Part shown: in pieces, positions 2,325 to 64,000 of the stretch | Numbering within the stretch: the first letter of the stretch is position 1 | Layout: each line of letters opens with the position of its first letter | From: a virus | IMG/VR virus record: IMGVR_UViG_3300014059_000004 | DNA: 64,000 bases | Strand: one strand, 5' to 3' | Notes under the pieces: generated by a model | What the model was told of the DNA's origin: nothing | Seen by the model: the letters and a program-made list of their open reading frames with translations, nothing else | The model's database searches: none | Position numbers and translations under genes: made by a program

Positions 2325-2325
2325 C

Positions 2326-2733: not shown

Positions 2734-2749
2734 AGCTTACCATAGAAGT

Positions 2750-4396: not shown

Positions 4397-4683
4397 GTAA
4401 TGTTGAACCGAAGATTGTGCCAGGAACGCTAGTGATCTCTGATTCTATATCTTGGCGTGGCGTCCTCTTGTGCACTGCCGTGTATAGATTGGGTAGCAAT
4501 TGCTACGTTCATTACGTAGGATTCTTCAAAGATGGTCGTGTGAAGTTCGACATAGTCGACGACAATTCGTGGCGACTTCACAATGAAACGTACGAAAAGT
4601 GGATGAATAATCCATCACGATACACGGTTGTGCAACCCTTATTGCTCTTGAGGTACAGTAAGATACATGGCAAGGCTTCTTGA
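4393..4683 (+). CDS. small paralog (PGTLV motif)
   Basis: N-term MSNVEPKIVPGTLVISD; coupled. Confidence 0.45.
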   Translation: MSNVEPKIVPGTLVISDSISWRGVLLCTAVYRLGSNCYVHYVGFFKDGRVKFDIVDDNSWRLHNETYEKWMNNPSRYTVVQPLLLLRYSKIHGKAS

Positions 4684-5815
4684 GAAGGTTTCTTTCGCAT
4701 GTCGAAACTCAGAGAAGGTGAAAGACCTCTCTGGGAACGATATCGAAGTTCGTCCGACGTTCACCTTCAACCCGGAATCGAAGACTTCCCCTGCGACTGC
4801 AAAGCGTTGGGTCGAGACAAACTGGTACGGCCGGAACAAGGGCGTGTTCGAACCCATCACAGAGCTTAACAGCGGGCTTGTGCTGAAGATCACGAACCTT
4901 GAAGTTCGCAGCGAAGGTGGTCGAGCGTACAAAGTCATCGATCAGTTCAATCGCCAGCACGATCTCCGTGAGGATCAACTTCTGGAGTGCATCAAGCGCG
5001 AGGGCATCGCTCCGGGTGGGAAGCTCGGCGGGCAGTTCGTGTGGGGCGTTGATGGGTCGACGCTTCGTCTGACTCTCGTTGGCGGTGATTCGTACGCAGA
5101 GATGGTTCAGGGTTCGATCGATGCTTCTGCAGCAGCATCTTGGAATCCTTTGACTTTGAAGACGATGACACCGGGCACGGTGTGCCAGAAGCGCGATGGA
5201 ACGAAGCTCGTCTTCTTGGGCCGTGCAAAATTCCCGCACCTGAATGGAACTCTTCATGCTTTCGTCGAGCTTCCTGCGCCACCCGAACGTTACGATCCCG
5301 AGGTGGCTGCTAACAACGGCGGTGATCCTTCCTTCGTCAAGAAGAACAACGATATCGCAGATGCATGGGATTCCATGTCATGGAAGGCTCGCTACGATTA
5401 CGTGGAGTTGGATCGATACGCACGTTACGATCGACCCGACAGAGAAGATCATCGAATCTACAAGCCCGTCATCTTCTTGAGCAGCCCGAAGTTCGTGTCT
5501 GCTGAAGAAGTTTTGAAGGACTTTCCTACATCGATGTTCATGAATGCTAACGATTCACGGCCGTACGTGACCGGAAACCAAGATGAACTGCGCAATTTTT
5601 ACCTCGACAACAGTCTTGGACCTCAGTACAATGCTACGTGGAACTGCTACGGTCACAACAACAGAAGCGCAGTTGCGGAACGAAAGCGTCTGCAGAAATT
5701 GATCGAGGAAGATCATGCAAAGGCACTGAAGGCTGCAAAGGAGGCTGTAACGTGGCTCTTAACGATGGCGCAGTGGAAGGTAAGAAGTTGTCGACAGAAC
5801 GCATCAAGGAGATGA
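4667..5815 (+). CDS. hypothetical protein (382 aa)
   Basis: Long ORF; stop TGA overlaps next ATG (ATGATGA at 5812-5817). Confidence 0.55.
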   Translation: MARLLEKVSFACRNSEKVKDLSGNDIEVRPTFTFNPESKTSPATAKRWVETNWYGRNKGVFEPITELNSGLVLKITNLEVRSEGGRAYKVIDQFNRQHDLREDQLLECIKREGIAPGGKLGGQFVWGVDGSTLRLTLVGGDSYAEMVQGSIDASAAASWNPLTLKTMTPGTVCQKRDGTKLVFLGRAKFPHLNGTLHAFVELPAPPERYDPEVAANNGGDPSFVKKNNDIADAWDSMSWKARYDYVELDRYARYDRPDREDHRIYKPVIFLSSPKFVSAEEVLKDFPTSMFMNANDSRPYVTGNQDELRNFYLDNSLGPQYNATWNCYGHNNRSAVAERKRLQKLIEEDHAKALKAAKEAVTWLLTMAQWKVRSCRQNASRR

Positions 5816-20225: not shown

Positions 20226-20419
20226 AATGGGTTCAGTCTGAACAAAAAGGAGAATTTAAGCCCGCGCCCTTGAAGCCTGTTACGCCCGCGCAGCTGAAGA
20301 AATTTTACGCTCAACTGCGTCTACAGTATCCTGGGAAGATTGGTATTGCAAAGGTCAGTGAGGCTAGAGAGTTCAACAAGATGCTGAAAAAGCTAGTGTT
20401 TGGCAACAAGAAGAAGTGA
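20183..20419 (+). CDS. possible small protein
   Basis: 78 aa ORF overlapping 3' end of AAA+ gene; weak. Confidence 0.25.
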   Translation: MSTARNLSDLTTKLEWVQSEQKGEFKPAPLKPVTPAQLKKFYAQLRLQYPGKIGIAKVSEAREFNKMLKKLVFGNKKK

Positions 20420-20452
20420 AACTTTGATCTGCACAGATGTAAGATTGAATCA

Positions 20453-21385
20453 ATGCTAGGCGTTTGCTGCCATTGGCTTAAGTCTCACGTGCAACCACGC
20501 ACGGGTAACACTGTTCTCGTCAATGAGATGTCTGAACGTACGTTGCAGCTGGGAAGGTTCCAGCGCGGCGCGTACACTGACGAGCAGATCCGTGTTACGT
20601 ACATCAGCAACATCAAGAACCTCGCTGCGATGATACCCAAGGTGTCAGCAGCGGGGATTCGTCTATTTCGAATTTCGTCATCTCTGTTCCCGCTTGCTGA
20701 TAAAGTGCCTCGCAAGACGTGGGACAATCCTGCGGTTCGTGCAGAGTTGCAGCGTGCTGGCACAGCAGCAATCTCACGTGGTATACGGTTGACAACGCAC
20801 CCAGGTCAGTTCTGCGTCATATCGTCCGATTCTGACCGCGTTGTTGAGAATTCTTTCAACGAGTTGTCACTTCATGGCTGGATCTTTGATGCCATGGGTC
20901 TCCCGCGGTCGCCGCACGCAGCAATCAACATTCACGGTGGTAAGGGTGACCGTCATTCACGGCTCGTTGATGGCATTCGTTCGTTGCCACAGTCTGTTCG
21001 GTCTAGGCTTACGCTTGAGAACGATGAGTCAGCGTACTCTGTCGTCGACTTGCTACCCGTCTACAAGGAAACTGGCGTGCCGATCGTGTGGGATTCGCAC
21101 CATCATACGTTCAACGACGGCGAGCTAACTGCTGACGAAGCGTTCAATGTAACACAGTTGACATGGCCGAAAGGTGTGATACCTCTTCAGCACATATCAA
21201 ACACTGAGCCTTCATTGTTGAACGGTTCATTTATTGACAGGAGGAAGCATAGCGACTACATCCATCATGTTCCTGATTGTCAGCTCCGTGGGCTTAGGGA
21301 TGATACAATCGCCGTAGAAGTCGAAGCTAAGCACAAGAATCTTAGCGTTGACCTCATGGCATCGATGTTCAACATACCTAAATGA
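20453..21385 (+). CDS. uvdE: UV damage endonuclease UvdE
   Basis: RISSSLFP, THPGQF, INIHGGKGDR, LTLENDESAYSV, PIVWDSHHH motifs of UvdE/TIM-barrel AP endonuclease family. Confidence 0.8.
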   Translation: MLGVCCHWLKSHVQPRTGNTVLVNEMSERTLQLGRFQRGAYTDEQIRVTYISNIKNLAAMIPKVSAAGIRLFRISSSLFPLADKVPRKTWDNPAVRAELQRAGTAAISRGIRLTTHPGQFCVISSDSDRVVENSFNELSLHGWIFDAMGLPRSPHAAINIHGGKGDRHSRLVDGIRSLPQSVRSRLTLENDESAYSVVDLLPVYKETGVPIVWDSHHHTFNDGELTADEAFNVTQLTWPKGVIPLQHISNTEPSLLNGSFIDRRKHSDYIHHVPDCQLRGLRDDTIAVEVEAKHKNLSVDLMASMFNIPK

Positions 21386-25455: not shown

Positions 25456-25667
25456 GGCAGATCGTTCGTGAAGAGATCGAAAGAATGATGAATCGATCTG
25501 CTGGGATGTTCGGCGGTGGAGGTATAAGCAGGTCAGACAATGGTGTCGTGCCTCCACCTCCAGGATTGGGCAGTCCGAGCGAAGAGATAGAGAATGAAAA
25601 ACAAGAACAAGATGAACCAAGCCAGTCAGTCGTCCGAGCAAACAACAGAGCGGGAAGACGCGATTGA
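25431..25667 (+). CDS. small protein, paralog of 29098..29499 (shared RVRQIVxEEI motif)
   Basis: MRINVERVRQIVREEIER... vs VKITIARVRQIVLEEILRE. Confidence 0.45.
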   Translation: MRINVERVRQIVREEIERMMNRSAGMFGGGGISRSDNGVVPPPPGLGSPSEEIENEKQEQDEPSQSVVRANNRAGRRD

Positions 25668-25866
25668 GCTTCAAGGCGTGGTGGATGAAGCTCTACCTGG
25701 GACGCTGTTTAGCGTCATCGTAGAAGGCGGCAATAAAGTTCTAGCCACGCTGTCTGGCAAGCTTCGCATCAACAGGATCAGGTTGATCCCAGGTGATCGT
25801 GTTACAGTGGCGGTTTCGCCCTATGACTGTTCTCGAGGGCGCGTATTGTGGCGACTCTTAACATAG
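25594..25866 (+). CDS. infA: translation initiation factor IF-1 homolog
   Basis: EDAIELQGVVDEALPGTLFSVIVEGGNKVLATLSGKLRINRIRLIPGDRVTVAVSPYDCSRGRVLWR aligns over full length with bacterial IF-1 (S1-like OB fold). Confidence 0.75.
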   Translation: MKNKNKMNQASQSSEQTTEREDAIELQGVVDEALPGTLFSVIVEGGNKVLATLSGKLRINRIRLIPGDRVTVAVSPYDCSRGRVLWRLLT

Positions 25867-41295: not shown

Positions 41296-41527
41296 AAGTC
41301 ACCTCGTTAACGTCCCAATCGTCAAGGAAGACGAGCGACATGTCGCGCCTCAGGCACATCACGATGTTTCGACGACTCATGTCGTACGAGGAAACGACGG
41401 TTAGAAACTCAGATTCATCCACCAGCATAGATGAATCGTTCCACTGACGACACCAACAATCATCCAGCAATTTAAGGCCACGAGCTTCGCTGTGCGGTTT
41501 AACAAGCATGCCAGGAAGATGACGCAT
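41288..41527 (-). CDS. array paralog
   Basis: MRHLPGMLV. Confidence 0.5.
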   Translation of the reverse strand: MRHLPGMLVKPHSEARGLKLLDDCWCRQWNDSSMLVDESEFLTVVSSYDMSRRNIVMCLRRDMSLVFLDDWDVNEVTCG

Positions 41528-41587
41528 CCTCTTAACATCTTACCACTCTGGGCCCGAGCTGTGCACAGCGCTCGTGGGCCTCACGAT

Positions 41588-44856: not shown

Positions 44857-45101
44857 TTGACAACCTTGAACTGGTGCGGGAAAGAGACCCAGATCTCACC
44901 GCGGAACAATACGACAGCGAGGTTACAATCATCCCACGTGACCGTGCCAAGAAAAGTGCCAGCTGCTCGGCATTCTTCATCTGTGGGCTTGAAATCTTTA
45001 TACACGAGCCGCGCGCCGTCCTCATGCAGTGAAATGGTCGTCACGTACGTACTTCCATGCGATTGTAGAATCACCATGTCACCCGGAAGTGTCACTGCCA
45101 T
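44853..45101 (-). CDS. array paralog
   Basis: MAVTLPGDMV. Confidence 0.5.
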   Translation of the reverse strand: MAVTLPGDMVILQSHGSTYVTTISLHEDGARLVYKDFKPTDEECRAAGTFLGTVTWDDCNLAVVLFRGEIWVSFPHQFKVVK

Positions 45102-45141
45102 CTAACAATTGTAACCCATTTTGTGGCACCAGTGCACAGCG

Positions 45142-52915: not shown

Positions 52916-53857
52916 TCAAAAAGGTACTCCCAGTAACAAATTTAACAGGAGCGAGAAATCTGAATCATTCCTGTCAGCGTTCAAGTTCACAGTGAACGGT
53001 GTCATCCCGTCGGGGGATATGCTGATCATTGACATTGTGACGATATCGTGACCCGCGCCGTGCATCTCATTCCGGACGGTTGCAACGACGAGCAAGTACT
53101 CGTTGAGCATCGAGCCCGGGACAGAAAAGAGCAAGTCGCCAGGCTCCAGCGTTCCGAACGTCCACCTTTTGCGGGCCACTGGTAACTTCACCTTCCGCGG
53201 TCGACCACGCTTCCGCTTAGCAGAGACCTCTGCGCGCTTCTCCTTGGCAGCACGCTCTGCAGCGATGACATCTTTCGGGCGGTTCTTGGAACCAGGCGGG
53301 CGACCGCGCTTCCCCTTGCGGACAGGCTTGGGCTCACCCTCCGGCGGCAGCGGTCGAACTCGCGGTCGGCCACGCTTCTTCTTGCCGATGGTCTCCTTGG
53401 CGATGGCCAGGCAGTACACGTCACCCTTCTTCGGGCCGGTGATGTAGTTGCCCAGGGCATGCTGCTTCAGGTCTTCGTTCCAGAGACCCACCACACCAGT
53501 CTCGTCATCGATGCTCTCCACCGTGTACGTCAGGGTATCGAGCCACGGACGCGCTGCCAGGACAGAAGCATAGCGCTCGATGACGATCTTGTCACCGATG
53601 TTAAAGAGCGGGAGGGGAGCACCGTCCACCACCACAAGCGCAGGCTTCAGGTGAGAGATGTCTGGCTTCCGGGCATTGCGGTCCGCCCACGCAGCGTCCG
53701 GATCGCGGCCAGCAAGACCCCAGTCTTCATCAGCGTCCGCAGGGAGAGCCGGCGGGGGAAGAGCAGATGCCGAAGCAACGAGTGCATTGACCTGGTCGGT
53801 GAGAGGGTTCGTCTCGTCCATAGGTTTATTGTACCACGTTTCTTCGAGGGTTTGCAC
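52916..53857 (-). CDS. two-domain array-family protein with three AT-hook motifs in the linker
   Basis: LFNIGDKIVI... and TLEPGDLLF... domains; KRGRPRV, GKRGRPPGSKNRPK, RKRGRPRKV (GRP cores). Confidence 0.55.
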   Translation of the reverse strand: MQTLEETWYNKPMDETNPLTDQVNALVASASALPPPALPADADEDWGLAGRDPDAAWADRNARKPDISHLKPALVVVDGAPLPLFNIGDKIVIERYASVLAARPWLDTLTYTVESIDDETGVVGLWNEDLKQHALGNYITGPKKGDVYCLAIAKETIGKKKRGRPRVRPLPPEGEPKPVRKGKRGRPPGSKNRPKDVIAAERAAKEKRAEVSAKRKRGRPRKVKLPVARKRWTFGTLEPGDLLFSVPGSMLNEYLLVVATVRNEMHGAGHDIVTMSMISISPDGMTPFTVNLNADRNDSDFSLLLNLLLGVPF

Positions 53858-53929: not shown

Positions 53930-54154
53930 CTAAAAGGCGGTCAATGAATCGTACGTGTCATCATGGGTCGGGTAGCTCTTCCAGACCTTAAAAGTTTCCA
54001 AGCTCATGAACCCAATGTCGAGCAATTCACCATCGTCGTGCTTCATCGTCTTCCAGATCACCATGACCATCGCCTTGCGACCGCCGCCGGGTCTCCAGCC
54101 TTCCTTGTCCCACAGGAGCAATGTCCCCGGTTGAAGATCTTTTACGTACACCAT
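53930..54154 (-). CDS. array paralog (QPGTLL variant)
   Basis: MVYVKDLQPGTLLLW. Confidence 0.5.
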   Translation of the reverse strand: MVYVKDLQPGTLLLWDKEGWRPGGGRKAMVMVIWKTMKHDDGELLDIGFMSLETFKVWKSYPTHDDTYDSLTAF

Positions 54155-54375
54155 AATAGCATCGTTGCGTAGCAGTACTGCTCGTCGACTTCACTGACAG
54201 TATCCCAGAATCTCTGCTCTTCCGCGCAGAAGAATCTGACCCTCCTCCAATAAACGTTGCTCTCGTGAGCCCAGATGCCGATCACCATGACTGTCACTGG
54301 CGTCGTCAACCTTGGAACGATTGTGCGATCCCAGCGCAATAGAGTTCCTGGTTGAATGTCTTGAACTTTGACCAT
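54142..54375 (-). CDS. array paralog (QPGTLL variant)
   Basis: MVKVQDIQPGTLLRW. Confidence 0.5.
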   Translation of the reverse strand: MVKVQDIQPGTLLRWDRTIVPRLTTPVTVMVIGIWAHESNVYWRRVRFFCAEEQRFWDTVSEVDEQYCYATMLLWCT

Positions 54376-54489
54376 GTGAAGAGTTCTTTTAGCGCTACGC
54401 AGGCACGTTTAACAGTATTCAACAATTGTATTACGTTCGAACATGAGCTGGGTTGTGTATAAGAGAACGAATACGTTGAATAAGAAAAT

Positions 54490-54711
54490 TTATATTGGGC
54501 TCACGATCACGTGCCCTGCGTTCTCGCAGGGATGATGTTCACCCCAAGGCTTTGTGCACCATTTATATTCCGGGTCGACATTGTTGAACGTTTCAACTTT
54601 GCCATCATGGATTGTGACCATCGTGCTACCCTTTGTGCTGACGAACACGTGGAGCGTTCGAACCCAAGTGACGATCGATCCGGGAAGTATGTTCTTTGTC
54701 TTTATTGTCAT
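54490..54711 (-). CDS. array paralog variant
   Basis: NILPGSIVTW. Confidence 0.45.
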   Translation of the reverse strand: MTIKTKNILPGSIVTWVRTLHVFVSTKGSTMVTIHDGKVETFNNVDPEYKWCTKPWGEHHPCENAGHVIVSPI

Positions 54712-54986
54712 TGTGCGAGGATGAAGGGGGTGACTGAGCTGCCGAGCTCACGCTTGAACTTCTCAATGTCACCGCACACGGGCCACAGGTGGTTCTCTTG
54801 GACCTCGATCCAGTTGAGCCGGCTCATGGGGGAGTGCCAGGAATGCTCAAGCATCGTGACTTTGTACCAGAAGTCGTCCTTCAACGTGGGATTGGGAACT
54901 TTACCGATGCACAAGACAACGTACAGCGAAGAAGCCCACTGGATGAGGGCACCAGTTTTGACATCAGTTGTGGGGATGAATAGCAT
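54708..54986 (-). CDS. array paralog variant
   Basis: DVKTGALIQW. Confidence 0.45.
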   Translation of the reverse strand: MLFIPTTDVKTGALIQWASSLYVVLCIGKVPNPTLKDDFWYKVTMLEHSWHSPMSRLNWIEVQENHLWPVCGDIEKFKRELGSSVTPFILAQ

Positions 54987-55062
54987 CTGTTGAATTGTGC
55001 AAACCCGTGGATTGACGCATGCGCGTCACCCGGTGGAGTGATGAGCTGGGCTCATCAACCTG

Positions 55063-55144
55063 TGGAGCAACCCTGAGTCGAACAGGGACCGCGCATGGCG
55101 GCTCGGGTGGTTTAAGCCCCAGACTCTCCTGAGATTATTGCCCC
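55063..55144 (-). other. tRNA-like element: canonical T-arm plus acceptor 3' strand (GGTCCCTGTTCGACTCAGGGTTGCTCCA), followed by 7-bp hairpin; 5' half does not fold into a canonical D/anticodon arm
   Basis: T-stem CCCTG/CAGGG, T-loop TTCGACT, 7-nt acceptor complement GGGGCAA 82 nt upstream; downstream hairpin GATGAGC-TGG-GCTCATC at 55040..55056. Confidence 0.35.
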
Positions 55145-55870
55145 TTGCCCGAGAGATCACGGGTCACTCATGGTTTCATTGTAACCGGTTTAGTGTATAT
55201 TATACACATGGTGATCGAGAAGTTTGTTGAAGCAAAAGTTCAACATCTACGCATGAAGTGTGATCAATGCAACGTTGAATTTGTTCGCAACAAAAACGTA
55301 AGAATGCTCATGTCGCGGCCTCGACAATATTGTTCATCTGGCTGCGCTTCTGGTGCTCTACGCAAAGGCGGTATTGCTGATGCTTCGCGAAAGAAGACAT
55401 GCACTGAGAAGTATGGATCATCTTACTTTATTATCACACCTCAAATTCTCGCGCAGAACGCAGAGAGATCTCACACGCCTGAAGCAGAAGCCCGCCGGCG
55501 GGCCGCCGTCAGAGAATCTTTGAAGAGCACAACAGTTCAGCTAAGACGTGGGCTGTTTTTGACACGATCTAAAGCTGAGATCAAGTTCTTTGATGCCCTG
55601 GCCGGGGCCTTGGGTTATAAACTAGAGACGCAAGTATACATCAACGGTTGGTGGATCGATGCTTGGTCACCTGTTCATGATGTTTGGCTTCAATTCGACG
55701 GCGTATACTGGCATTCAAAACCGGGCGCTGTTCTTCGTGATCGAGCTCAAGATCTGTGGTTTGCAGATCAAGGAAAAAGATTGATCAGAATCACTGATGT
55801 AGAAGCACGAAACGCCAGGTCCGTTGAAGACCTGGCGTTGAAGATTACTAATCCAGTGGGTAGTTCATAA
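55145..55870 (+). CDS. endonuclease-like protein: N-terminal Cys cluster plus C-terminal DUF559/Vsr-like PD-(D/E)xK-type domain
   Basis: CDQCNVEF...CSSGC; C-term WIDAWSPVHDVWLQFDGVYWH resembles E-x-D-G-x-x-W-H restriction-endonuclease-like motif. Confidence 0.45.
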   Translation: MPERSRVTHGFIVTGLVYIIHMVIEKFVEAKVQHLRMKCDQCNVEFVRNKNVRMLMSRPRQYCSSGCASGALRKGGIADASRKKTCTEKYGSSYFIITPQILAQNAERSHTPEAEARRRAAVRESLKSTTVQLRRGLFLTRSKAEIKFFDALAGALGYKLETQVYINGWWIDAWSPVHDVWLQFDGVYWHSKPGAVLRDRAQDLWFADQGKRLIRITDVEARNARSVEDLALKITNPVGSS

Positions 55871-56644
55871 CTCAAAGACGTTGATCTGACCCATCTCGTG
55901 CAGTCCTTCCTTATTGTAGCCAAGGACGTAACCCCGACCGGAACATCCAAACCTATTCTTTGTCACCTCGAAGATGCGCTGCCCGTAGGAAGGCGACTTC
56001 TCCTGCTGGTCGATGTAAAGCTTTCCTCGGACGTCGATGGCGTGGAGGATGCCGTTCTTCCCAGAGAACTCGCCGTCCTTGTTCACCTGGCCGATGAAGA
56101 CCACGCACCCGTAAGTCGCCTTGGCCCACTCGGTCAGCATCTCGGTTGCACGGAGCGGCGTGGTCCCGTTCGTCCCGTTGGAGTACTTCCCGTCGTCCAG
56201 AGTCTGCAAGGAGTCCTGGAGGATGAAGACCTGCTTGCCCTTGTGAACCTTGCGCAGTTCATCAGCATGGGCCAGGAGATCCGGCACCATGATGTCCTGC
56301 CCGCAGACGAAGCCGTGCTTCAGGTTGAGGCGCTCGGTGACCATGCGGACCTGGTGCAGGGATTCCTCGCCCGTGTTGTACAGGCAGATGTGACCGGACT
56401 TCGTGATGGAATCTGCAACCTGCAGCAGCATCGTGGTCTTCCCAGCACCCGGCGTACCCGTCAGCATCATCACCGAGGAAGGCACGAATCCCTCACCGCC
56501 CACCGCATCGTCGAACCAGGTGACGCCCGTCTTCACTCGCCGGCGCAGGGCATCCGGGACCTTGACGTCCATGATGTTCGTCCCACGCTTCAGGCCTTTG
56601 ATCCCAACATTGATTGACATTGACCGGGCCATTGTATACCTCAA
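55865..56644 (-). CDS. RecA-superfamily ATPase (single-domain RadA/Sak4/KaiC-like)
   Basis: Walker A LTGTPGAGKTTMLLQ, Walker B VFILQDSLQ, 259 aa. Confidence 0.55.
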   Translation of the reverse strand: MRYTMARSMSINVGIKGLKRGTNIMDVKVPDALRRRVKTGVTWFDDAVGGEGFVPSSVMMLTGTPGAGKTTMLLQVADSITKSGHICLYNTGEESLHQVRMVTERLNLKHGFVCGQDIMVPDLLAHADELRKVHKGKQVFILQDSLQTLDDGKYSNGTNGTTPLRATEMLTEWAKATYGCVVFIGQVNKDGEFSGKNGILHAIDVRGKLYIDQQEKSPSYGQRIFEVTKNRFGCSGRGYVLGYNKEGLHEMGQINVFEL

Positions 56645-56801
56645 TCCTGTGGTTGTACAGATTGGTGATCGTTTATGAAAGTCAAGCTGCGAAGCGCGGG
56701 ATCCTATCCGGATTCCCCTTTCCGCCGCAGCGGCATAGTCTAGTTATACCCCAACCCTGAAGCCCTTTGCACCCTCACAGATCTCCGGTGCTCAAATTGC
56801 T

Positions 56802-56881
56802 GTGGGCCTCACGAGTAAAACGATTTAATGGGGAGGTAGGGTAACACCTTCCGACCATGGGAAGGTCACGGTGAGGCCCAC
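56802..56881. other. structured intergenic element: 11-bp outer stem GTGGGCCTCAC...GTGAGGCCCAC enclosing 7-bp hairpin ACCTTCC-gaccatg-GGAAGGT
   Basis: Inverted complementarity read directly; contains the 30-bp motif also present inverted at 61931..61962. Confidence 0.45.
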
Positions 56882-56939
56882 GTGTGACCTGACGGCCGGT
56901 GTGGTAAGGTGGCCGCAGGATGCTGACGTGGGAAGGGGT

Positions 56940-56975
56940 GTGCAAAGGCAACCGCGATGGTGGTACTATAAGATC
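56940..56975 (+). promoter_or_regulatory. conserved promoter-like motif GTGCAAAG-N16-TACTAT-AAGATC immediately before ATG
   Basis: One of four instances with identical spacing (also 57545, 62035, 63877). Confidence 0.55.
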
Positions 56976-57290
56976 ATGGCACGAATCAAGACGAACGGCA
57001 CGGCGCAGATGATTCTCTCGTACCTGAAGGCTTCTCACGAGTGGGGACCCTTCACGGAGCGCCAGATCCTGGATCAGGTTCGACCCAAGGGTTGTTCACC
57101 GCGGTGGGGGAACTCTTACTTCCTCGTGGGCAAGGGCAACGCTCACGAGATTTCACTCATCAAGCGAGGTCTCATCGACGTGGTGGCAGAATCCACGCGC
57201 GGTGCAAGGATGTACGCGATCTCAGAGCTCGGGCGTAAAGTTCTCCAGGCGTCTCTGATGATCCCTGCGCTACCGCGCTCCGCAGTGTAA
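56976..57290 (+). CDS. small winged-helix-like protein (MARIKTNGT...), paralog of gene starting at 63913
   Basis: ATG directly after promoter motif; N-terminus shared with 63913 ORF (MARINQND). Confidence 0.5.
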   Translation: MARIKTNGTAQMILSYLKASHEWGPFTERQILDQVRPKGCSPRWGNSYFLVGKGNAHEISLIKRGLIDVVAESTRGARMYAISELGRKVLQASLMIPALPRSAV

Positions 57291-57323
57291 TCGCAGCGAT
57301 CCTTAGCTTAGAATAGACTTACA

Positions 57324-57548
57324 ATGTCTCCCCGCGCAACGGTTGGTTTCGCTGCTATCGCAGCATTGCTGCTCTGGATCATAGTGTTCACTTACGGCGT
57401 GGTGAAGGGAATCTTGTTTTACCTGGGAATCGAAGTCTCAGCGAGTGCACTCTTCCCGTTCGTCACCACAGTCATCGTTCCTGCTCTCATCCTCCTGGGC
57501 ATCTACCGTGGGTATCGCCGGCTGATGAACTGGATCTCGGGGAAGTGA
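57324..57548 (+). CDS. small membrane protein (2 TM)
   Basis: FAAIAALLLWIIVFTYGVV and VTTVIVPALILLGIY helices. Confidence 0.45.
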   Translation: MSPRATVGFAAIAALLLWIIVFTYGVVKGILFYLGIEVSASALFPFVTTVIVPALILLGIYRGYRRLMNWISGK

Positions 57549-57580
57549 AAAGTCTCGCCTGAAAGGGTTATACTAAGATC
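57545..57580 (+). promoter_or_regulatory. promoter-like motif GTGAAAAG-N16-TATACT-AAGATC-ATG
   Basis: Second instance of the conserved motif. Confidence 0.55.
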
Positions 57581-58015
57581 ATGGCTGCCAAGAAGAACAA
57601 GAACGACGGGTTGGTTAACAACGTGAAGCACTACTTCAACGTTGCAACGTACGCAGAGATCGTTGCTCTGTCGAACGCATGCGCTCGGGAGCTTGGAAAG
57701 CGTGATTATGCTTTCCGGTTGGAGAATGCACAGCGCGAGGCAGATCGCATCAAGAAGCACATGAAGAAGACTTCGTGGAAGTCGATCGATCGTGGACGTC
57801 TTCCGTATCGTCCTGGTTACTCTATGGTAGGGTGTTACACACCCCCGCGGAAGCGGAAGTTCTTCTGCGGAGGCGTGTGGACTTACAACAAGCGTTTCTA
57901 TGCCCTCTCCAAGAGCGGTGCACTCTACGTGTTTGTTGAGTGGGCCCGTGAATGGGTTCGCAAGGATGTCCCTCGGTTAAAGAAAAAAGAATCGGGCGGG
58001 TGTCACTTAGTGTAA
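57581..58015 (+). CDS. basic hypothetical protein
   Basis: 144 aa ORF starting at the motif-adjacent ATG. Confidence 0.5.
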   Translation: MAAKKNKNDGLVNNVKHYFNVATYAEIVALSNACARELGKRDYAFRLENAQREADRIKKHMKKTSWKSIDRGRLPYRPGYSMVGCYTPPRKRKFFCGGVWTYNKRFYALSKSGALYVFVEWAREWVRKDVPRLKKKESGGCHLV

Positions 58016-58122
58016 AAGATACCCACCGCATGTTACAGTCAAACTACAATACGGTGCTGCGGTGCAAAAGGGTGCCGCAGCACCCTAGCGTTTCAACGAG
58101 GAAAAAGGGAAAAAAGAACAAC

Positions 58123-59283
58123 ATGACCGCAACTCCGATGTCCATTCACACGTTCTGCGAGGTAGCGCCGAAGCTTCCGCGCGATACTTCCATCCTGCTC
58201 CGAGGCCCGCACGGCATCGGAAAGTCGCAGGTGGTCCGGCAGGTGGTCCGCAAGATCGCCGAGCTCGAGGGCCTGGGTGAGCTGGAGCTCATTGACAGGC
58301 GCCTGTCGCAGATGTCCGAGGGTGACATGATCGGTCTTCCGTCGACCGACGGTGAGGTCACCCGGTTCAACCCGCCCGACTGGTTCAAGCGTGCTTGCGT
58401 CAAGCCGTGCGCTCTGTTCCTCGACGAGCTGAATCGTGCAACTCACGAGGTCATGCAGGCTGCGTTCCAGATCGTTCTGGACCGTGAGCTGAACGGCATG
58501 AAGCTTCACCCGAACTCGCGGGTCTTCTCCGCGATCAACTCCAGCGCCGAGTACACCGTCAACGAGATGGACCCTGCGCTGCTCGATCGTTTCTGGACGG
58601 TCGACCTGCGTCCGGATGTCAAGGACTGGATCGATTGGGCAACGACCGAGGGGAAGATCTCCAACACTCTCGTCGACTTCATCCGCGCTCACGGTGAGAC
58701 GTGGCTCGACACGCCGAAGAAGACCGAGCCTGGAACTGTGTCGACCTCGCGGCGCTCCTGGGAGCGACTGTCGAACGCTCACAAGCTTCTCGGCATCGAG
58801 GAGGAGCCGACCAACCCGCTCTTCTACTCCGTCGCCCTGGGCTACGTGGGAACGGAGGCAACGATCGCCTACGTGGACTTTGCGAAGTCCGTGGACACCC
58901 GCGTCGATGGATCTGACGTGATCAACAACTGGAAGAAGTTCGAGAAGAAGGTGGAGAAGCTCTCGCAGGATCGCCTCAACGGTCTCGTCGAGAAGGTGGC
59001 AGATTACGTCAAGAAGGAGGTCGGTGACAAGCTGACGGACAAGCAAGGCAAGAACCTGCAGGCCTTCATGAAGTTCCTGCCGGGTGAGCTCCGCATCAAC
59101 GCATGGGCGAAGATGATGGAAGGCGGCGTCGACAACGTCAACATGGCGAAGTCGATCCACAAGTACTGCGTGCCGGACATCCTGGACGTCTTCGGGGTGC
59201 CTTTCGGCGCAGCGGGCGTGAACATTACGCCAAATATTCCTGGCTTTCTAAAGGATAAGGACGCCAAGAAGTTACGGACCTGA
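58123..59283 (+). CDS. MoxR/CobS-like AAA+ ATPase (AAA_5)
   Basis: Walker A LLRGPHGIGKSQ, Walker B ALFLDELNRA, 386 aa; RBS aaaaaggga. Confidence 0.68.
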   Translation: MTATPMSIHTFCEVAPKLPRDTSILLRGPHGIGKSQVVRQVVRKIAELEGLGELELIDRRLSQMSEGDMIGLPSTDGEVTRFNPPDWFKRACVKPCALFLDELNRATHEVMQAAFQIVLDRELNGMKLHPNSRVFSAINSSAEYTVNEMDPALLDRFWTVDLRPDVKDWIDWATTEGKISNTLVDFIRAHGETWLDTPKKTEPGTVSTSRRSWERLSNAHKLLGIEEEPTNPLFYSVALGYVGTEATIAYVDFAKSVDTRVDGSDVINNWKKFEKKVEKLSQDRLNGLVEKVADYVKKEVGDKLTDKQGKNLQAFMKFLPGELRINAWAKMMEGGVDNVNMAKSIHKYCVPDILDVFGVPFGAAGVNITPNIPGFLKDKDAKKLRT

Positions 59284-59289
59284 GAACGG

Positions 59290-59769
59290 GTGTCGAAAGT
59301 GGCAACACAATCGAGCACCCGTTGGAAAGAGGCGCTGGATGAGCTTGAGGCTTGGTGCAGTTCAAAGGGGCTCAAGCTCTTCTTCCTGCGTTCTGAACGA
59401 ACGGGTGCGTACTGGGATCTGAGCCGTGAGATCATCGTTAACTCACGGTTCTGCGACGAAACGAAGTGCTACATCATCCTCCATGAAGCGGGTCACTACC
59501 TGTACTCCATCGATCACAGCGGCGGTCGAAGCTCATGGCGGGTGAAAGCGATAGAACCGCAGAGCGATTCGCCGGTGCACCTCCGCCACGAACATGCTCT
59601 GAACCTCTTGAAAGAAGAGTACGAAGCATGGGATAGGGGACTGAAGCTCGGGCGTCGTCTGGGCATCCTACCAACGGGTGATCTACCGAAGAACTGGTCA
59701 AAGCTGAAGAACAAGTGCCTGGCTAGCTACGTTGCTGATACTGCTGCGAAGCTCGCGGAGAAACCATGA
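59290..59769 (+). CDS. putative zinc metallopeptidase (HExxH)
   Basis: ILHEAGHYLYS motif. Confidence 0.45.
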   Translation: MSKVATQSSTRWKEALDELEAWCSSKGLKLFFLRSERTGAYWDLSREIIVNSRFCDETKCYIILHEAGHYLYSIDHSGGRSSWRVKAIEPQSDSPVHLRHEHALNLLKEEYEAWDRGLKLGRRLGILPTGDLPKNWSKLKNKCLASYVADTAAKLAEKP

Positions 59770-60341
59770 AGAAGATCAAGATTCCATCGCACCCTGACGT
59801 TGCCGCACAGATCGTCTCATCGAACCCGATGACAATGATCGCATTCCAGCACGTCATGCTGCAGAGCGGTATCGTGCCCATCACAACGGTGGGATCTGAC
59901 GTCAACAAGCTGCTGAAGGACCAAGGGGTTTCAGAGGAGGATCAGCGCACCCTGAAGCGAAAGTTCCGAAAGCTGTGGCGAACTGCTGCAAAGCGCGTGG
60001 AGAAGAGCAACAGCGGAACAGCAGCGATCAGGGAAGCAAGGGCCGCAGCGCTTCGCACGAAGCCGGTGCCAAATGCACCTGAAGCTCCAGTGCCGCCACC
60101 GAATCGTTTTCACAAAGAGGCTCGGAAGGCTCTGGTCTTCATGACTCTCAGACCGCAGATCCAGGCGCTGGTCGACAGCATGGTCGATCTTACGACCAAG
60201 AAGGAGTTACATCGAATGATACGATCTGGCCCAGGCCCGCCCCGCTTACACTTGCTACGATTGACCTTGGATATGCAGGTGACAGAATCCGAAAGGATGT
60301 CCAGTAACCAATTGAAGACTGTGAAACACTTGTTGAGTTGA
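59766..60341 (+). CDS. hypothetical protein
   Basis: ATGA coupling; 191 aa. Confidence 0.45.
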   Translation: MKKIKIPSHPDVAAQIVSSNPMTMIAFQHVMLQSGIVPITTVGSDVNKLLKDQGVSEEDQRTLKRKFRKLWRTAAKRVEKSNSGTAAIREARAAALRTKPVPNAPEAPVPPPNRFHKEARKALVFMTLRPQIQALVDSMVDLTTKKELHRMIRSGPGPPRLHLLRLTLDMQVTESERMSSNQLKTVKHLLS

Positions 60342-60379
60342 AACGACAAACGCCCGGGGTATCCCTCCCCGGGCGTTTT

Positions 60380-61120
60380 CTATTTGAGCTTAAGGCTTAA
60401 AAGAGAACGAACGCCAGCACCGTACCACGGGCGCTTGATGGAGCAAGACAATGCATCCAGGACAACGTACCCGATGTGCTTGCCTTCTCCCGTTGCTTCG
60501 GCATCGTTCGGATCCAGGCCGATGTCGTCTTTCTGGCCCATCCTGTTGACACCGCTCTGGACGTAGCCGAAGCGCCAGCAACCCAAGACAGTGCCGACGA
60601 TGAGAATTTCACCACCGTAACCATCGTCTTCTTTGTACGTAACGAGCTCGCCGAGCTTACGGCGGGGCAGCTGGGCCATGCGTAATTCCTCAATGACAGG
60701 TTTGAGACATGCTAGGGTTGGGATGATGTAGCATCCCGTGCCGATGATGAACGTGTGGCGGAGGAGACGCAGCGTGGCATCCTTCTTCCGCTCTTCGCTT
60801 CTGATAGAGCCTGCGAACACAGCGACCGTGCCGATCTTTGCGATCGGTTCTGAACTACGCCCTGTCATGCGCTCCATGAGAACTGGGTACGCCGGCTGCG
60901 TGTAGTACTTTGGAAGGTACTCTTCGTACAGCGGTACTGTCACTGTGAACATCGATCCTGCATGCTGCAGCGCAGAGATCCATGCCTCGTAGATCTTCGG
61001 ATCTACGGACGGGGGATCTGTCGCGCCTCTGAATGGCGGGAGCTGAAGAACTTCAACCTTGGGTGGTGGCTTACCGCCCGAAGTTCCCGTCCACTTGATG
61101 ATGGGTCGCTTCTTCGCCAT
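60380..61120 (-). CDS. hypothetical protein (246 aa)
   Basis: Clean ORF; convergent with upstream block. Confidence 0.5.
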   Translation of the reverse strand: MAKKRPIIKWTGTSGGKPPPKVEVLQLPPFRGATDPPSVDPKIYEAWISALQHAGSMFTVTVPLYEEYLPKYYTQPAYPVLMERMTGRSSEPIAKIGTVAVFAGSIRSEERKKDATLRLLRHTFIIGTGCYIIPTLACLKPVIEELRMAQLPRRKLGELVTYKEDDGYGGEILIVGTVLGCWRFGYVQSGVNRMGQKDDIGLDPNDAEATGEGKHIGYVVLDALSCSIKRPWYGAGVRSLLSLKLK

Positions 61121-61123
61121 TCC

Positions 61124-61483
61124 TCAACCCCTCGAGATTTCGATCGAGAAGCGAACGACGATGTACGTCATGACCGCGGGGGCGTAAGGAAGACCCGTGA
61201 TCAGATTGATCGGACGTTCGTCGACGATCTCACCCGAGTCAGCGACCCCCACAGCGGGCACGGTCACCCGCTGGGTCTCCCAAGTGAAAGCTGTGAAAGG
61301 CGATGCCTCGCGGGGAGCGAGGCCAGTCATCCGAAACAGCTCCAGAACGCGGCCTTGCGAGTTGAGCTGCCCATTCCCAGACGTCAGCTGGTACGTCTGC
61401 TCGTAACGACCTTCACCGAGGGATTCCTCGGAAATCAGGACGAGCTCCAGGATCGGGATGGGATTGATGTGACATATCCTCAT
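61124..61483 (-). CDS. hypothetical protein
   Basis: 119 aa ORF tightly following. Confidence 0.45.
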   Translation of the reverse strand: MRICHINPIPILELVLISEESLGEGRYEQTYQLTSGNGQLNSQGRVLELFRMTGLAPREASPFTAFTWETQRVTVPAVGVADSGEIVDERPINLITGLPYAPAVMTYIVVRFSIEISRG

Positions 61484-61527
61484 GGTTGGCCTCCTAAGAG
61501 GATTCTACAACTTTCTGCGGTGAATGT

Positions 61528-61839
61528 TCACTTCGTGGCTTCGAACCAAGCCTTGAACTGCTGCGATTGCTCGGGCGTCAGGGTGCCGACGTGCCACATG
61601 CACTCCACGGCACCATTGTACTTGTAGTCGTACACAGCCACGTTGAATCCAGGACCTTCGAAGATCCACTCGTGGGTCGTCTTATACCCATCACCAGGGA
61701 GCGGTTCACCGAACCGGGCGACCATCTGCTTCAGGGTTCCTCGGACAGTTACACCGTGGAACGACGTTTCGTTGATGTCTGCATCGGGGTTCGGCCTGAA
61801 CATGATCCAACTATAACTCATTCCCCCCGTGAGTTGCAC
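61528..61839 (-). CDS. hypothetical protein
   Basis: 103 aa ORF. Confidence 0.45.
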   Translation of the reverse strand: MQLTGGMSYSWIMFRPNPDADINETSFHGVTVRGTLKQMVARFGEPLPGDGYKTTHEWIFEGPGFNVAVYDYKYNGAVECMWHVGTLTPEQSQQFKAWFEATK

Positions 61840-61930
61840 CCGGTCATACCCTCGCCCGCGGGCATTCCATTACCACCACCTTCCAACCCCCGACCGGTCG
61901 CACAGGTGACCCACGGTGACCCCCGAAAAG

Positions 61931-61962
61931 CCGGAAGGTGTTACCCTACCACCCTATTAAAT
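61931..61962. repeat. inverted copy of about 30-bp motif (CCGGAAGGTGTTACCCTACCACCCTATTAAAT) shared with 56824..56853
   Basis: Reverse complement matches ATTTAATGGGGAGGTAGGGTAACACCTTCCG with 2 mismatches; both in divergent intergenic regions. Confidence 0.6.
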
Positions 61963-62034
61963 GAGAAGCACGTGAGTGATTATACTCAGGGTACAATTAC
62001 AACGCGGGTATAATCGAAAATAATCTTGCGCTCC

Positions 62035-62070
62035 GTGAAAGAACGACCGCTGCCATGGTACAACTAGATC
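62035..62070 (+). promoter_or_regulatory. promoter-like motif GTGAAAGA-N16-TACAAC-TAGATC-ATG
   Basis: Third instance, same spacing. Confidence 0.5.
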
Positions 62071-63201
62071 ATGATGGAGCGGCGGAAAGGAAACGCCCCT
62101 CCCAGAAACCTCTCACAAGAAACCCAAAGGAATACACACACCATGTCGATGAAGAACCCCACCTCGCCCCGCCGCATCTACTCCACCCGCGGCACGATGG
62201 TTTTCCTCTTCAAGGGCAAGCGCTACTGCCCGGCCGGTGAGTCGGCCTTCGTCACCAAGGCGCCTTGCACTGTCGTCGAGGAGCACAAGGACGGAAGCCT
62301 CACGGTGAAGCAGCGCCTCCCGAAGAAGGCTGGCATCACGGAGGTCTGGGTCGAGTTCGCAGAGTTACCGAGGCAGTGTAAAGACGAGTTAGGACGAGTT
62401 AGAGTAAAAACACACGGCGAGGGGATGATCCCTCGCCAAGTGAGAGACATCTCTCACCAGAGAACGCGGAAACTTTCAAAGAGGAAAAAGGATATACACA
62501 TGAGCGAGAACACGAACGAGAACAAGGCGACCGAGGCTGCTTCCACGAGCGAGACGACGGACGTCGTCGATGCGGCGCTGAAGGCCGCGCTGGCACGGAA
62601 GGCTGCGAAGGCTGCGGGTGGAGCGAAGACGGCTGCTCCGAGTGCAAAGCCTGCGAAGGCGACCGACGCGGAGCGGGAGGCCAAGAAGGCTCAGATCGAG
62701 GCGGATCGGAAGGCCCGCAAGGAGGCGAAGGAGGCGGAGCGAGCGGAGAAGCTGGCTCTTGCACAGGCGAACCGGAAGCCGGCTCACATGTCCAAGGTCG
62801 AGAAGGCAGCGGAGCGTCTGCCGCGCCTCGAGGGCACGGCCGAGCATCTGTTCACCGATGCGACCGCGAATCTCAGCCGCGACCAGGTGACTGCTCTTGC
62901 ACTGCACCTCCAGCACTTCAACCGCGCTCAGGCCACCGAGCGTGCCCTCACGGCGAAGCTCGAGGTCGGTGCAAACGTCCGGATCACCGGTGGCGATCCT
63001 CGCTTCATCGGGCTGACGGGTGAGCTCTCCAAGGTCCAGCGCATCCGGTGCTATTGCACTGTTCCTGGCCTCGACCGCGACGTCTATCTCTTCACGAGCG
63101 ATGTCACGGTGATCGAGGAGGACTCGGAGTCGGAGACGGTCGAGAACACTGGTACGGATGGCTTAGAAATTGGAGAGCTAGTGAACGAAATCGCTTGTTA
63201 G
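62071..63201 (+). CDS. hypothetical protein with central Ala/Lys-rich low-complexity (histone-H1-like) segment; possible internal restart at 62503
   Basis: ATG at motif-defined position; KAAAKAAGGAKTAAPSAKPAKATDAEREAKKAQIEADRKARKEAKEAERAEK. Confidence 0.5.
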   Translation: MMERRKGNAPPRNLSQETQRNTHTMSMKNPTSPRRIYSTRGTMVFLFKGKRYCPAGESAFVTKAPCTVVEEHKDGSLTVKQRLPKKAGITEVWVEFAELPRQCKDELGRVRVKTHGEGMIPRQVRDISHQRTRKLSKRKKDIHMSENTNENKATEAASTSETTDVVDAALKAALARKAAKAAGGAKTAAPSAKPAKATDAEREAKKAQIEADRKARKEAKEAERAEKLALAQANRKPAHMSKVEKAAERLPRLEGTAEHLFTDATANLSRDQVTALALHLQHFNRAQATERALTAKLEVGANVRITGGDPRFIGLTGELSKVQRIRCYCTVPGLDRDVYLFTSDVTVIEEDSESETVENTGTDGLEIGELVNEIAC

Positions 63202-63847
63202 CTCTCCACCTAATTGCCTTCTCTCTTATAAGCGCCTTGGTTTTCTCAGTATGCCCAGCGTACTGATGATTATCAAGGCGCTTTTGTTTTTCTCTTTTCA
63301 CAGCTGCAAGTCGAATCCTTTCTCTTGTTTCTTCTGAGATTGGTTTTCGATTCTTCTGTGAACGTCTCATCTTCTCAAGCGTTGCAGCACTGTGTTTCCG
63401 ACCAGTCGACGATTCAATCATCTTTTTCTTGATTTCGTCAGTTGATTGTGCAATGCGGACACCTCGACTGATCTTTCTTTTTGTCTCTTCTGAAGTGACA
63501 TGTCCCATCTTTGCTTTGCTCACCTTTTCTGCGATGAAAGGATTGTGCATTGGACTAGTTTCACCTCCCAGAGTTAGATTAGCGCCCCACCAATCTGGTC
63601 CTCCATGTGCGTACGTTTTGTATTCTGTTATGAGACGTTGTTCATGTTGAAGAGCCTCGAGTTCATCATCAGTTTCAAATACAACTGATCGAAATTGCCC
63701 GTACTTTGCTGCAATTCGTGAATGAAATTCATTCCGTTCTAGCGAATTCACTCGCTTAAGATTACCTTTCCCAACGTAGTATGGTCTTTTTACATCTTCA
63801 TTAGTGTAGTCGACGTATACGCAGTAGCGACATGAAAGTTGAAACAT
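63104..63847 (-). CDS. GIY-YIG homing endonuclease (I-TevI-like with NUMOD3 repeats), free-standing
   Basis: YVDYTNEDVKRPYYVGKG...R...E core; ETKRKISRG / ETRERIRLAA repeats; AT-rich; 3' end overlaps upstream gene antisense by about 98 nt. Confidence 0.75.
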   Translation of the reverse strand: MFQLSCRYCVYVDYTNEDVKRPYYVGKGNLKRVNSLERNEFHSRIAAKYGQFRSVVFETDDELEALQHEQRLITEYKTYAHGGPDWWGANLTLGGETSPMHNPFIAEKVSKAKMGHVTSEETKRKISRGVRIAQSTDEIKKKMIESSTGRKHSAATLEKMRRSQKNRKPISEETRERIRLAAVKREKQKRLDNHQYAGHTEKTKALIREKAIRWRANKRFRSLALQFLSHPYQCSRPSPTPSPPRSP

Positions 63848-63876
63848 TGATTGAATTATACAACGTTTGATCGTTT

Positions 63877-63912
63877 GTGCAAAGTTGGCGGCGAAAAGGT
63901 TACAGTAAGATC
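63877..63912 (+). promoter_or_regulatory. promoter-like motif GTGCAAAG-N16-TACAGT-AAGATC-ATG
   Basis: Fourth instance. Confidence 0.55.
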
Positions 63913-64000
63913 ATGGCCCGAATCAACCAGAACGACACGAAGACGGTTGCGATGCTTCTCAGCGACGAGCTGAGCTCGATCCTCGAGGACGCCGCGGACG
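63913..64000 (+). CDS. 5' partial gene, paralog of 56976..57290 (MARINQNDTKTVAML...)
   Basis: Runs off window end; N-terminus shared with 56976 gene. Confidence 0.4.
   Translation, partial: MARINQNDTKTVAMLLSDELSSILEDAAD

Follow-up and report, generated by a model that had tools for sequence, protein, structure and literature searches.

Leaderless genes with a -10 element directly upstream of the open reading frame (ORF) are well known from mycobacteria (Shell et al. 2015, as cited in PMC8244752). Among phages, the cI mRNA transcribed from PRM of lambda is leaderless, and so, reportedly, are most middle and late transcripts of the Thermus phage phiYS40, whose promoters are said to lack a canonical -35 element and to combine the -10 element with a TGTG-type upstream motif. 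The middle promoters of phage T4 contain the MotA box (a/t)(a/t)(a/t)TGCTTtA, which is centred at -30 and read by a phage-encoded DNA-binding protein in the course of AsiA/MotA sigma appropriation; the resulting middle mRNAs are not leaderless. Sigma factors split over two polypeptides have precedents in T4 gp55 with gp33 and in SigO-RsoA of B. subtilis. Experiments in Deinococcus radiodurans showed that leaderless genes are transcribed from a -10 element located immediately before the ORF (PMC12340547). Jumbo phages without an RNA polymerase of their own ("group 2") often encode RpoD-like sigma factors together with a helix-turn-helix partner of the gp33 type (PMC7824862). The jumbo phage AR9 has AT-rich promoter motifs, phage multisubunit RNA polymerases, and 5′ untranslated regions (UTRs) of 26–491 nucleotides (nt) (PMC5312081), and no leaderless transcript was found for phiKZ (PMC8244752). 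Herein, we describe the promoter signal of a 64,000-nt stretch of viral DNA (IMG/VR record IMGVR_UViG_3300014059_000004), called the window in the following, by which the whole stretch is meant. The signal is a rigid cassette of ~39 bp that is common to a large family of uncultured jumbo phages.

In the window, the cassette consists of a box GTG(C/A/T)AA, 18 nt, a -10 element TAnnnT, a gap of 6 nt (sometimes 7–9), and ATG. It is likely that these repeats are the standard sigma-70–type promoter of this phage and of its clade and that the transcripts start at the ATG; the reader we prefer is the RpoD-like sigma factor of the clade, which may recognize the box. The arrangement resembles the leaderless genes of Deinococcus-Thermus and Actinobacteria—with TAnnnT 6–7 nt before the ATG, no Shine-Dalgarno sequence, and a start, here predicted, on the start codon. 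Unlike those genes, it belongs to a phage clade, comprises an invariant non-TTGACA box and a fixed discriminator within ~39 bp, and is reused hundreds of times. With phiYS40 and lambda cI it has in common that phage mRNAs would begin at the AUG; unlike in phiYS40, the box of the clade is located at -36. No sequence relationship was found, and the window has no DNA match in isolated phages. T4 middle promoters have a comparable architecture, in which a phage-specific box of ~9 bp takes the place of the -35 element ahead of a TAnnnT -10 element. However, the box of the clade, GTGCAAAGT, is centred near -32, and no MotA or AsiA family was detected in the window. Short, highly conserved, phage-specific promoters that are repeated across a giant genome are likewise found in phiKZ and AR9, but these have AT-rich motifs, are read by phage multisubunit RNA polymerases, and give leadered transcripts.

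The original prediction had reported the pattern GTGMAAAG-N16-TANNNT-N6-ATG at four loci near the right end of the window. Three of them match it exactly (box starts 56940, 57545, and 63877), whereas the fourth, ahead of ATG 62071, reads GTGAAAGA instead of GTGMAAAG and has TACAAC as its -10 element. With the box taken as a 6-mer, this site keeps the same geometry (GTGAAA-N18-TACAAC-TAGATC-ATG). A pattern search of the whole window adds an exact match at 2290 with ATG 2326, and 100 dinucleotide shuffles of the window contain no match at all. The fixed distance between box and -10 element holds as well: GTG[ACT]AA-Nx-TANNNT occurs 14 times at x = 18 versus ~0.9 per spacing (200 shuffles), and the shuffle maximum at x = 18 is five pairs. 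This spacing count is the decisive statistic for the reality of the motif. Minor peaks at x = 23–24 appear because TAAGAT-type hexamers overlap the -10 element and the discriminator. A weight matrix built solely from sites in related contigs, and thus independent of the window, finds 12 window sites at a score of at least 8 bits versus 0.245 per shuffle. Every exact window site has the TAnnnT hexamer, in which the second base, A, and the sixth base, T, are invariant. When one mismatch is allowed, ~25 credible sites on both strands emerge across the whole window, each verified for box, -10 element, gap, ATG, and ORF length. At ~16 of them, an ATG that opens a long ORF follows 6–9 nt past the -10 element, and the orientation of the cassette agrees with the downstream gene at every window site. 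The signal is far more widespread than the four loci had indicated.

Eight sites combine a 6-nt gap with a long ORF:

2290–2328, plus strand: cassette GTGCAA-N18-TACGAT-GGTAAC-ATG, predicted leaderless gene 2326–2733.
2714–2752, plus strand: cassette GTGAAC-N18-TACCAT-AGAAGT-ATG, gene 2750–3307.
45099–45137, minus strand: cassette GTGCAC-N18-TACAAT-TGTTAG-ATG, gene 45101–44853.
53819–53857, minus strand: cassette GTGCAA-N18-TACAAT-AAACCT-ATG (22.3 bits), predicted leaderless gene 53821–52916 (301 aa).
56940–56978, plus strand: cassette GTGCAA-N18-TACTAT-AAGATC-ATG (19.9 bits), predicted leaderless gene 56976–57290 (104 aa), whose product shows a weak EarA-like winged-helix match.
57545–57583, plus strand: cassette GTGAAA-N18-TATACT-AAGATC-ATG (32.5 bits), predicted leaderless gene 57581–58015.
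61801–61839, minus strand: cassette GTGCAA-N18-TATAGT-TGGATC-ATG, predicted leaderless gene 61803–61528 (91 aa).
63877–63915, plus strand: cassette GTGCAA-N18-TACAGT-AAGATC-ATG (32.6 bits), predicted leaderless gene from 63913, which leaves the window.

At seven further ATGs the gap is 7–9 nt; these comprise 9242 and 18375 (both plus strand) and the following:

4630–4669, plus strand: cassette GTGCAA-N18-TACAGT, 7 nt, ATG 4667, gene 4667–5815.
20416–20455, plus strand: cassette GTGAAA-N18-TAAGAT, 7 nt, ATG 20453, gene 20453–21385, an arrangement kept in many orthologues.
31317–31358, minus strand: GTGCAT-N18-TACAAT, 9 nt, ATG 31319, gene 31319–30555.
41525–41566, minus strand: GTGCAC-N18-TAAGAT, 9 nt, ATG 41527, gene 41527–41288.
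57285–57326, plus strand: cassette GTGTAA-N18-TAGAAT, 9 nt, ATG 57324 of a 74-aa membrane protein, predicted 5′ UTR 0–3 nt.

Scans for the cassette in IMG/VR returned 9 and then 85 stretches, many with 5–18 exact copies within a few kb, on contigs of up to 298 kb; related contigs overall reach 309 kb. The stretches that were tested by tblastx are true relatives. Contigs that were retrieved by means of the RadA-like protein of the window match this protein at 67–100%, and one IMG/VR contig of 81.6 kb shows 99–100% protein identity to three window genes (RadA-like, 53821, and 45101). Of the genome of this phage, the IMG/VR contig 3300033121_002167 covers one side only. In the relatives, the cassette heads arrays of small genes with one promoter per gene; neighbouring genes within these arrays sometimes have a common N-terminal sequence.

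The consensus of 85 distinct leaderless sites of the family is c(a/g)GTGCAAAGT(t/c)c..c..ggA(a/c)(a/g)(t/g)G(g/a)TA(t/g)(a/g)nT-A(a/g)(g/a)A(c/t)C-ATG, with G at -14 in 91% and C at -1 in 93% of the sites, followed by A at +1. The T, A, and T of TAnnnT reach 100% by construction of the search, whereas the G at -14 emerges independently. The box GTG(C/A/T)AA is extended to GTGCAAAGT in many relatives, forming nine invariant bases at -36 to -28. AAGATC, seen at several window sites, is the local form of the family discriminator A(A/G)(G/A)A(C/T)C and no separate element. A role of its GATC as a Dam site was considered and ruled out, the family consensus being AAGA(C/T)C, mostly AAGACC.

The coupling of the cassette to the start codon is seen throughout the family. 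The ATG follows exactly 6 nt past the -10 element at 107 of 137 sites in a first set and at 386 of 560 distinct sites (69%) across all relative loci examined. GTG and TTG are outside the eight commonest triplets at this position. Where the ORF at a 6-nt ATG could be scored, it spans at least 40 codons in 351 of 381 cases (92%; median 77), as opposed to a chance expectation that we estimate at ~15%. In the orthologues of 20453 and 2750, for the latter in four other contigs, the cassette stays at the start codon while the spacers diverge. The N termini of orthologues vary by 0–5 codons, and the ATG remains locked to the -10 element. In the relatives' loci L006, L183, and L144, the cassette also lies, without an ATG, 3–10 nt upstream of tRNA genes. 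Because tRNA genes as well as leadered genes carry it, the cassette is a signal for transcription and not for translation.

This lock of the ATG to the -10 element, the long ORFs behind it, and the C-1/A+1 pair support the proposed leaderless mRNAs as far as sequence allows. No Shine-Dalgarno sequence fits into the 6-nt gap, all of which is taken up by the discriminator. The upstream hexamer does not resemble TTGACA, and the 18-bp spacer lies within the 16–18 range. A start 6–8 nt past the -10 element, at a purine after a pyrimidine, is compatible with the sequence. In the window, the ATG fails to open a real coding sequence only at 56736, at 55171, and probably at 62071. The following course of events is proposed. 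Host core RNA polymerase, equipped with the RpoD-like sigma factor of the clade and possibly aided by an invariant protein of ~100 aa, would engage the box at -36 to -28, the 18-bp spacer, G at -14, the -10 element at -12 to -7, and the discriminator A(A/G)(G/A)A(C/T)C ending with C at -1. At approximately two thirds of the copies the next bases are ATG; transcription would there initiate with the A of this codon, which would make the mRNAs leaderless. Having neither a 5′ UTR nor a Shine-Dalgarno sequence, they would be taken up directly by 70S ribosomes with fMet-tRNA. The other copies would be promoters of genes whose leaders are rich in purines, of a 10-codon upstream ORF, or, in the relatives, of tRNA genes.

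As to the reader of the box, it had been suggested that GTGMAAAG is no sigma-70 -35 consensus and might be recognized by a phage-specific factor. The first point is correct, as TTGACA is matched at only three of six positions. GTGCAA(AGT) is the most conserved and most information-rich part of the motif, and its core (G/A)TG(C/T)AA recurs in related contigs of 35–61% GC with few sites per locus. The second point gains support in silico from the relatives, which encode an RpoD-like sigma factor without a recognizable region 4.2. All relative loci examined were searched with the sigma factors and RNA polymerase subunits of E. coli as queries. An RpoD-like protein of ~250–270 aa was found (phmmer versus E. 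coli RpoD, 1e-40 to 1e-49), and E. coli RpoB and RpoC gave no match at E ≤1 in the loci searched. Pfam assigns Sigma70_r2 (8e-23) and r3 to the protein and no r4, in agreement with the precomputed annotation of a 309-kb relative. In the alignment, regions 1.2 to 4.1 are conserved, including the -10-reading STYATWW.RQA. Past RFGL, only Y.IT.EE...I..G.GL follows before the stop codon, a truncated and variable remnant of region 4.2 in which the positions that match R584, R586, and R588 of sigma-70 are nonbasic and variable. In total, 346 IMG/VR stretches encode this sigma factor, including contigs with close homologues of the window's RadA-like gene (73–79%). A search with it finds only RpoD-like genes of <42% identity.

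A protein of ~100 aa is encoded 0–800 nt downstream of the sigma gene on the same strand in 78 of 78 loci, and the order sigma gene, small membrane ORF, ~100-aa protein gene is kept in all of them. Its core, GYATV..D.GVNYREIAD.M.E.GF.MNHSSARNYVLRVMRKF, is nearly invariant. The protein has 670 homologues in a set of 5.8 billion proteins, on contigs of up to 370 kb, and shows no Pfam family, no significant fold match, and no match in isolated phages. Example loci are as follows:

L107, 6001–6732: sigma gene.
L183, 8728–9531: sigma gene.
L183, 10001–10315: gene of the ~100-aa partner candidate.

We propose that the phage sigma factor reads the cassette, possibly with this ~100-aa partner. The link between sigma factor and motif is suggested by their co-occurrence and by the loss of the canonical region 4.2, the link between sigma factor and partner by gene order alone. 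Unlike in the known split sigma factors, only a functional region 4.2 is missing in that of the clade, and regions 1.2 to 4.1 are retained. Unlike partners of the gp33 type, the ~100-aa protein has no Pfam family or significant fold match. Taken further, the elements would add up to a private initiation system through which the clade runs much of its expression—a two-part sigma factor made of the RpoD-like protein without a functional region 4.2 and the ~100-aa protein as the reader of GTGCAAAGT, cassettes that start transcripts at the AUG, and a translation independent of Shine-Dalgarno sequences that is possibly tunable by IF1. This is put forward tentatively and is, in its complete form, rather unlikely.

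Several points weigh against the phage sigma factor as reader and against a start exactly on the ATG. No ORF of at least 60 aa in the window matches a Pfam sigma, RNA polymerase, MotA, or AsiA family; likewise, a Pfam scan of 115 window ORFs gave 14 families, with neither MotA nor AsiA among them. The presence of the sigma factor and its partner in this phage is thus an extrapolation from its relatives; judged by synteny with the 309-kb relative, the sigma operon would be located ~30 kb past the right end of the window. In the relatives, the operon of the sigma gene shows no obviously different, host-type promoter, and if the cassette were readable by the phage sigma factor alone, the first round of transcription would be left unexplained. 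Early genes of phages are usually expressed with the host sigma factor, and the arrays of small genes behind the strongest cassettes look early. Initiation 1–3 nt upstream would give very short leaders instead of none, the start position being deduced from sequence. As to the host of the phage, a cassette scan of genome_contigs found three short contigs of metagenome-assembled genomes; two of them carry the bin label "Proteobacteria," too weak a basis for assigning a host.

Alternatively, the host primary sigma holoenzyme alone could read the cassette, with GTGCAA as a settled variant of the -35 element, and the phage sigma factor could serve another class such as late genes. This is possible, though on balance doubtful. 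The -10 element, G at -14, the 18-bp spacer, and C-1/A+1 are all canonical for primary sigma factors, the arrays of singly promoted small genes resemble the early regions of other phages, and no separate host-type promoter is near the sigma operon. In addition, one promoter of the window comes nearer to the host consensus at equal leaderless geometry:

63845–63883, minus strand: TTTGCA-N17-TATAAT, 7 nt, ATG 63847, divergent from the 63877 cassette and driving the GIY-YIG endonuclease gene 63104–63847.

Its -35 element overlaps the box of the 63877 cassette on the plus strand. A reading by the host alone would nevertheless have to account for a box that matches TTGACA at three of six positions, yet is the most informative part of the motif and contains nine invariant bases in many relatives. 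It would also have to account for the recurrence of the core at 35–61% GC, probably in different hosts and at few sites per locus, and for the sigma factor without a canonical region 4.2 in every larger relative.

The remaining window sites have leaders or doubtful starts:

55169–55207, minus strand: GTGTAT-N18-TACAAT promoter that precedes a doubtful tRNA call and a leftward operon of small genes; ATG 55171 opens a 4-codon ORF.
56734–56772, minus strand: cassette GTGCAA-N18-TATAAC-TAGACT-ATG; ATG 56736 opens only a 10-codon ORF (MPLRRKGESG).
58010–58091, plus strand: two tandem promoters of the same class, -10 elements at 58034–58039 and 58086–58091, ahead of gene 58123–59283.
61502–61531, minus strand: GTGAAC-N18-TAGAAT promoter, 11-nt leader with AGGAGG, gene 61483–61124.
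62035–62073, plus strand: cassette GTGAAA-N18-TACAAC-TAGATC-ATG; ATG 62071 is doubtful as a true start.
62376–62405, plus strand: promoter GTGTAA-N18-TAGAGT (28.2 bits), predicted start ~62412, leader of ~88 nt to ATG 62500.

The tandem promoters are followed by purine-rich leaders of 25–77 nt before the gene of a MoxR/N4 gp24-like ATPase, and leadered genes in the window use the Shine-Dalgarno sequences AGGAGG or GGAAAAAGG. The RadA-like gene 56632–55865 (minus strand) begins ~100 nt downstream of the 56736 ORF. ATG 62071 is probably a leadered start or a short upstream ORF and not a true gene start, because its 5′ bases resemble the 56736 leader and a plausible better start lies at 62144. 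Both regions, 56704–56736 (minus strand) and 62071–62100 (plus strand), have the common start ATG-N-N-N-GCGGCGGAAAGG, which encodes M-x-x-RRKG, possibly a leader peptide or 5′ element that has been conserved. The 376-codon ORF 62071–63201 (plus strand) contains the internal promoter at 62376, a hairpin at 62415–62438, and an RBS-like (ribosome-binding site) sequence GAGGAAAAAGGA before the in-frame ATG 62500. Its conservation in relatives is confined to the part past 62500, and an orthologue of the 62376 promoter is present in relative L001. The arrangement suggests nested or overlapping products or an absent stop codon.

Such sites bear on a further alternative, which retains the promoter and denies only that the transcripts are truly leaderless: they would start a few nt earlier, such as at the A's within AAGA, or the ATG would form part of an initiator element instead of being the start codon. 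The ATG is indeed also found where no gene begins, at 56736 (10 codons) and 55171 (4 codons), and the gap is 7–9 nt at several window sites. The explanation is nonetheless improbable, as 92% of the ATGs begin an ORF that reaches 40 codons or more (median 77), alignments of homologues start at the ATG or at most five codons away, the pyrimidine at -1 and purine at +1 favour the A of the ATG as the start, and leadered copies of the promoter do not have the ATG.

It is very improbable that the repeats are no promoters at all but were left behind by duplicated genes, or are a small repeat of mobile or recombination type that lies upstream of genes by chance. Two of the genes first reported may be paralogues, and array neighbours in relatives sometimes have a common N-terminal sequence. 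The paralogy (MARIK/MARIN) amounts to 17 alignable residues at 53% identity with a pairwise E of 0.007, the second gene leaving the window. The cassette, however, precedes unrelated genes, tRNA genes, and genes on both strands, always in the orientation of the downstream gene, and its conservation is limited to the two boxes and the discriminator, whereas spacers and flanks vary. An archaeal-type promoter, in which BRE/TATA near -30 would give leaderless transcripts as in haloarchaeal viruses, has a negligible probability and was ruled out on the bacterial gene content: the box does lie at -36 to -28, where archaeal BRE/TATA sits, and leaderless mRNAs dominate in haloarchaea (PMC3986360), but the box is not AT-rich, one gene of the window is preceded by the Shine-Dalgarno sequence AGGAGG, a bacterial IF1 and a chaperonin of the GroEL type are encoded in the window, and the relatives encode a bacterial RpoD-like sigma factor.

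The window has a GC content of 51% and consists of a strand block at 1–24 kb, a block of opposite strand at 24–54 kb, and a GC-richer region of mixed orientation at 55–64 kb. The promoter-dense part 56000–64000 reaches 54–57% GC versus 47–51% mostly elsewhere, except for patches at 30–34 kb and 50–54 kb; several promoter-dense loci of relatives are GC-rich as well (for example L006, 59%, and L007, 61%). A junction between prophage and host at the GC step near 55 kb was ruled out, as the promoter class occurs on either side of it and the tRNA called there by ARAGORN is without Rfam support. This call, tRNA-Leu(taa) at 55062–55144 (minus strand), has an oddly placed anticodon; immediately upstream of it is a promoter of the cassette class, whose box lies at 55207. 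It is doubtful, since no Rfam tRNA match was obtained even at E ≤1. An Rfam search of the whole window returned no RNA family; hence, the conserved regions are not accounted for by a riboswitch or leader RNA. Relatives contain dense tRNA arrays (L183 1761–5863; L019 17225–19945), with 21 tRNA genes in ~4 kb. One relative tRNA with anticodon UUA received the call tRNA-Stop, a hint that stop codons may be suppressed or recoded.

The Pfam families in the window are GroEL, AAA protein, 5′-3′ exonuclease, major-vault-protein-like, UvdE, Fpg, NUDIX, RNA ligase, ADP-ribosylglycohydrolase, papain-like protease, GIY-YIG, and IF1. The IF1 homologue (25594–25866, plus strand; Pfam eIF-1a/IF-1, 7.7e-19) shares 53% identity with E. 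coli IF1 across 68 aa and may matter for a genome dependent on leaderless mRNAs; no IF1 was found in the relatives' loci examined. The GIY-YIG/NUMOD3 homing-type endonuclease gene (63104–63847, minus strand) is low in GC and inserted between two cassette-driven genes, with a leaderless-type promoter of its own. Four tandem small ORFs at 53930–54986 (minus strand) have the common N-terminal motif (V/I)xD(I/L)QPGTLLxW, which suggests a local expansion of paralogues. A 914-aa protein (31335–34079, minus strand) matches the major-vault-protein shoulder, vault-repeat, and SPFH families, which is unusual for a phage; its gene sits in a GC-rich patch (55–57% versus ~49% around). A megablast of 56800–64000 against isolated phages gave no match at the DNA level, and tblastn with the ATPase and GroEL gave only distant matches of <50% identity. 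An exact-protein look-up of the window's GroEL returned no record, and exact 50-mers taken at the window's right end are absent from metagenome_contigs and viral_contigs.

A literature search for the motif string and for leaderless promoters of jumbo phages returned nothing on this clade. Leaderless mRNAs and phage-specific promoters are each known separately, and their fusion into one reusable cassette of ~39 bp in giant phages is undescribed in the literature searched. The cassette occurs in hundreds of copies on contigs of 35–61% GC, in a clade whose sigma factor has lost the canonical -35-reading domain. It supplies a rule for correcting start-codon calls, as gene callers that expect a ribosome-binding site will mis-start such genes, and a sequence tag by which members of the clade can be retrieved from metagenomes. 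In addition, it offers a testable system for how a sigma factor without region 4.2 locates an upstream box and for whether a phage privileges its own messages by means of leaderless mRNAs. If the two-part sigma system should prove true, these phages would translate their messages without Shine-Dalgarno pairing, and initiation factors that they encode might adjust this translation.

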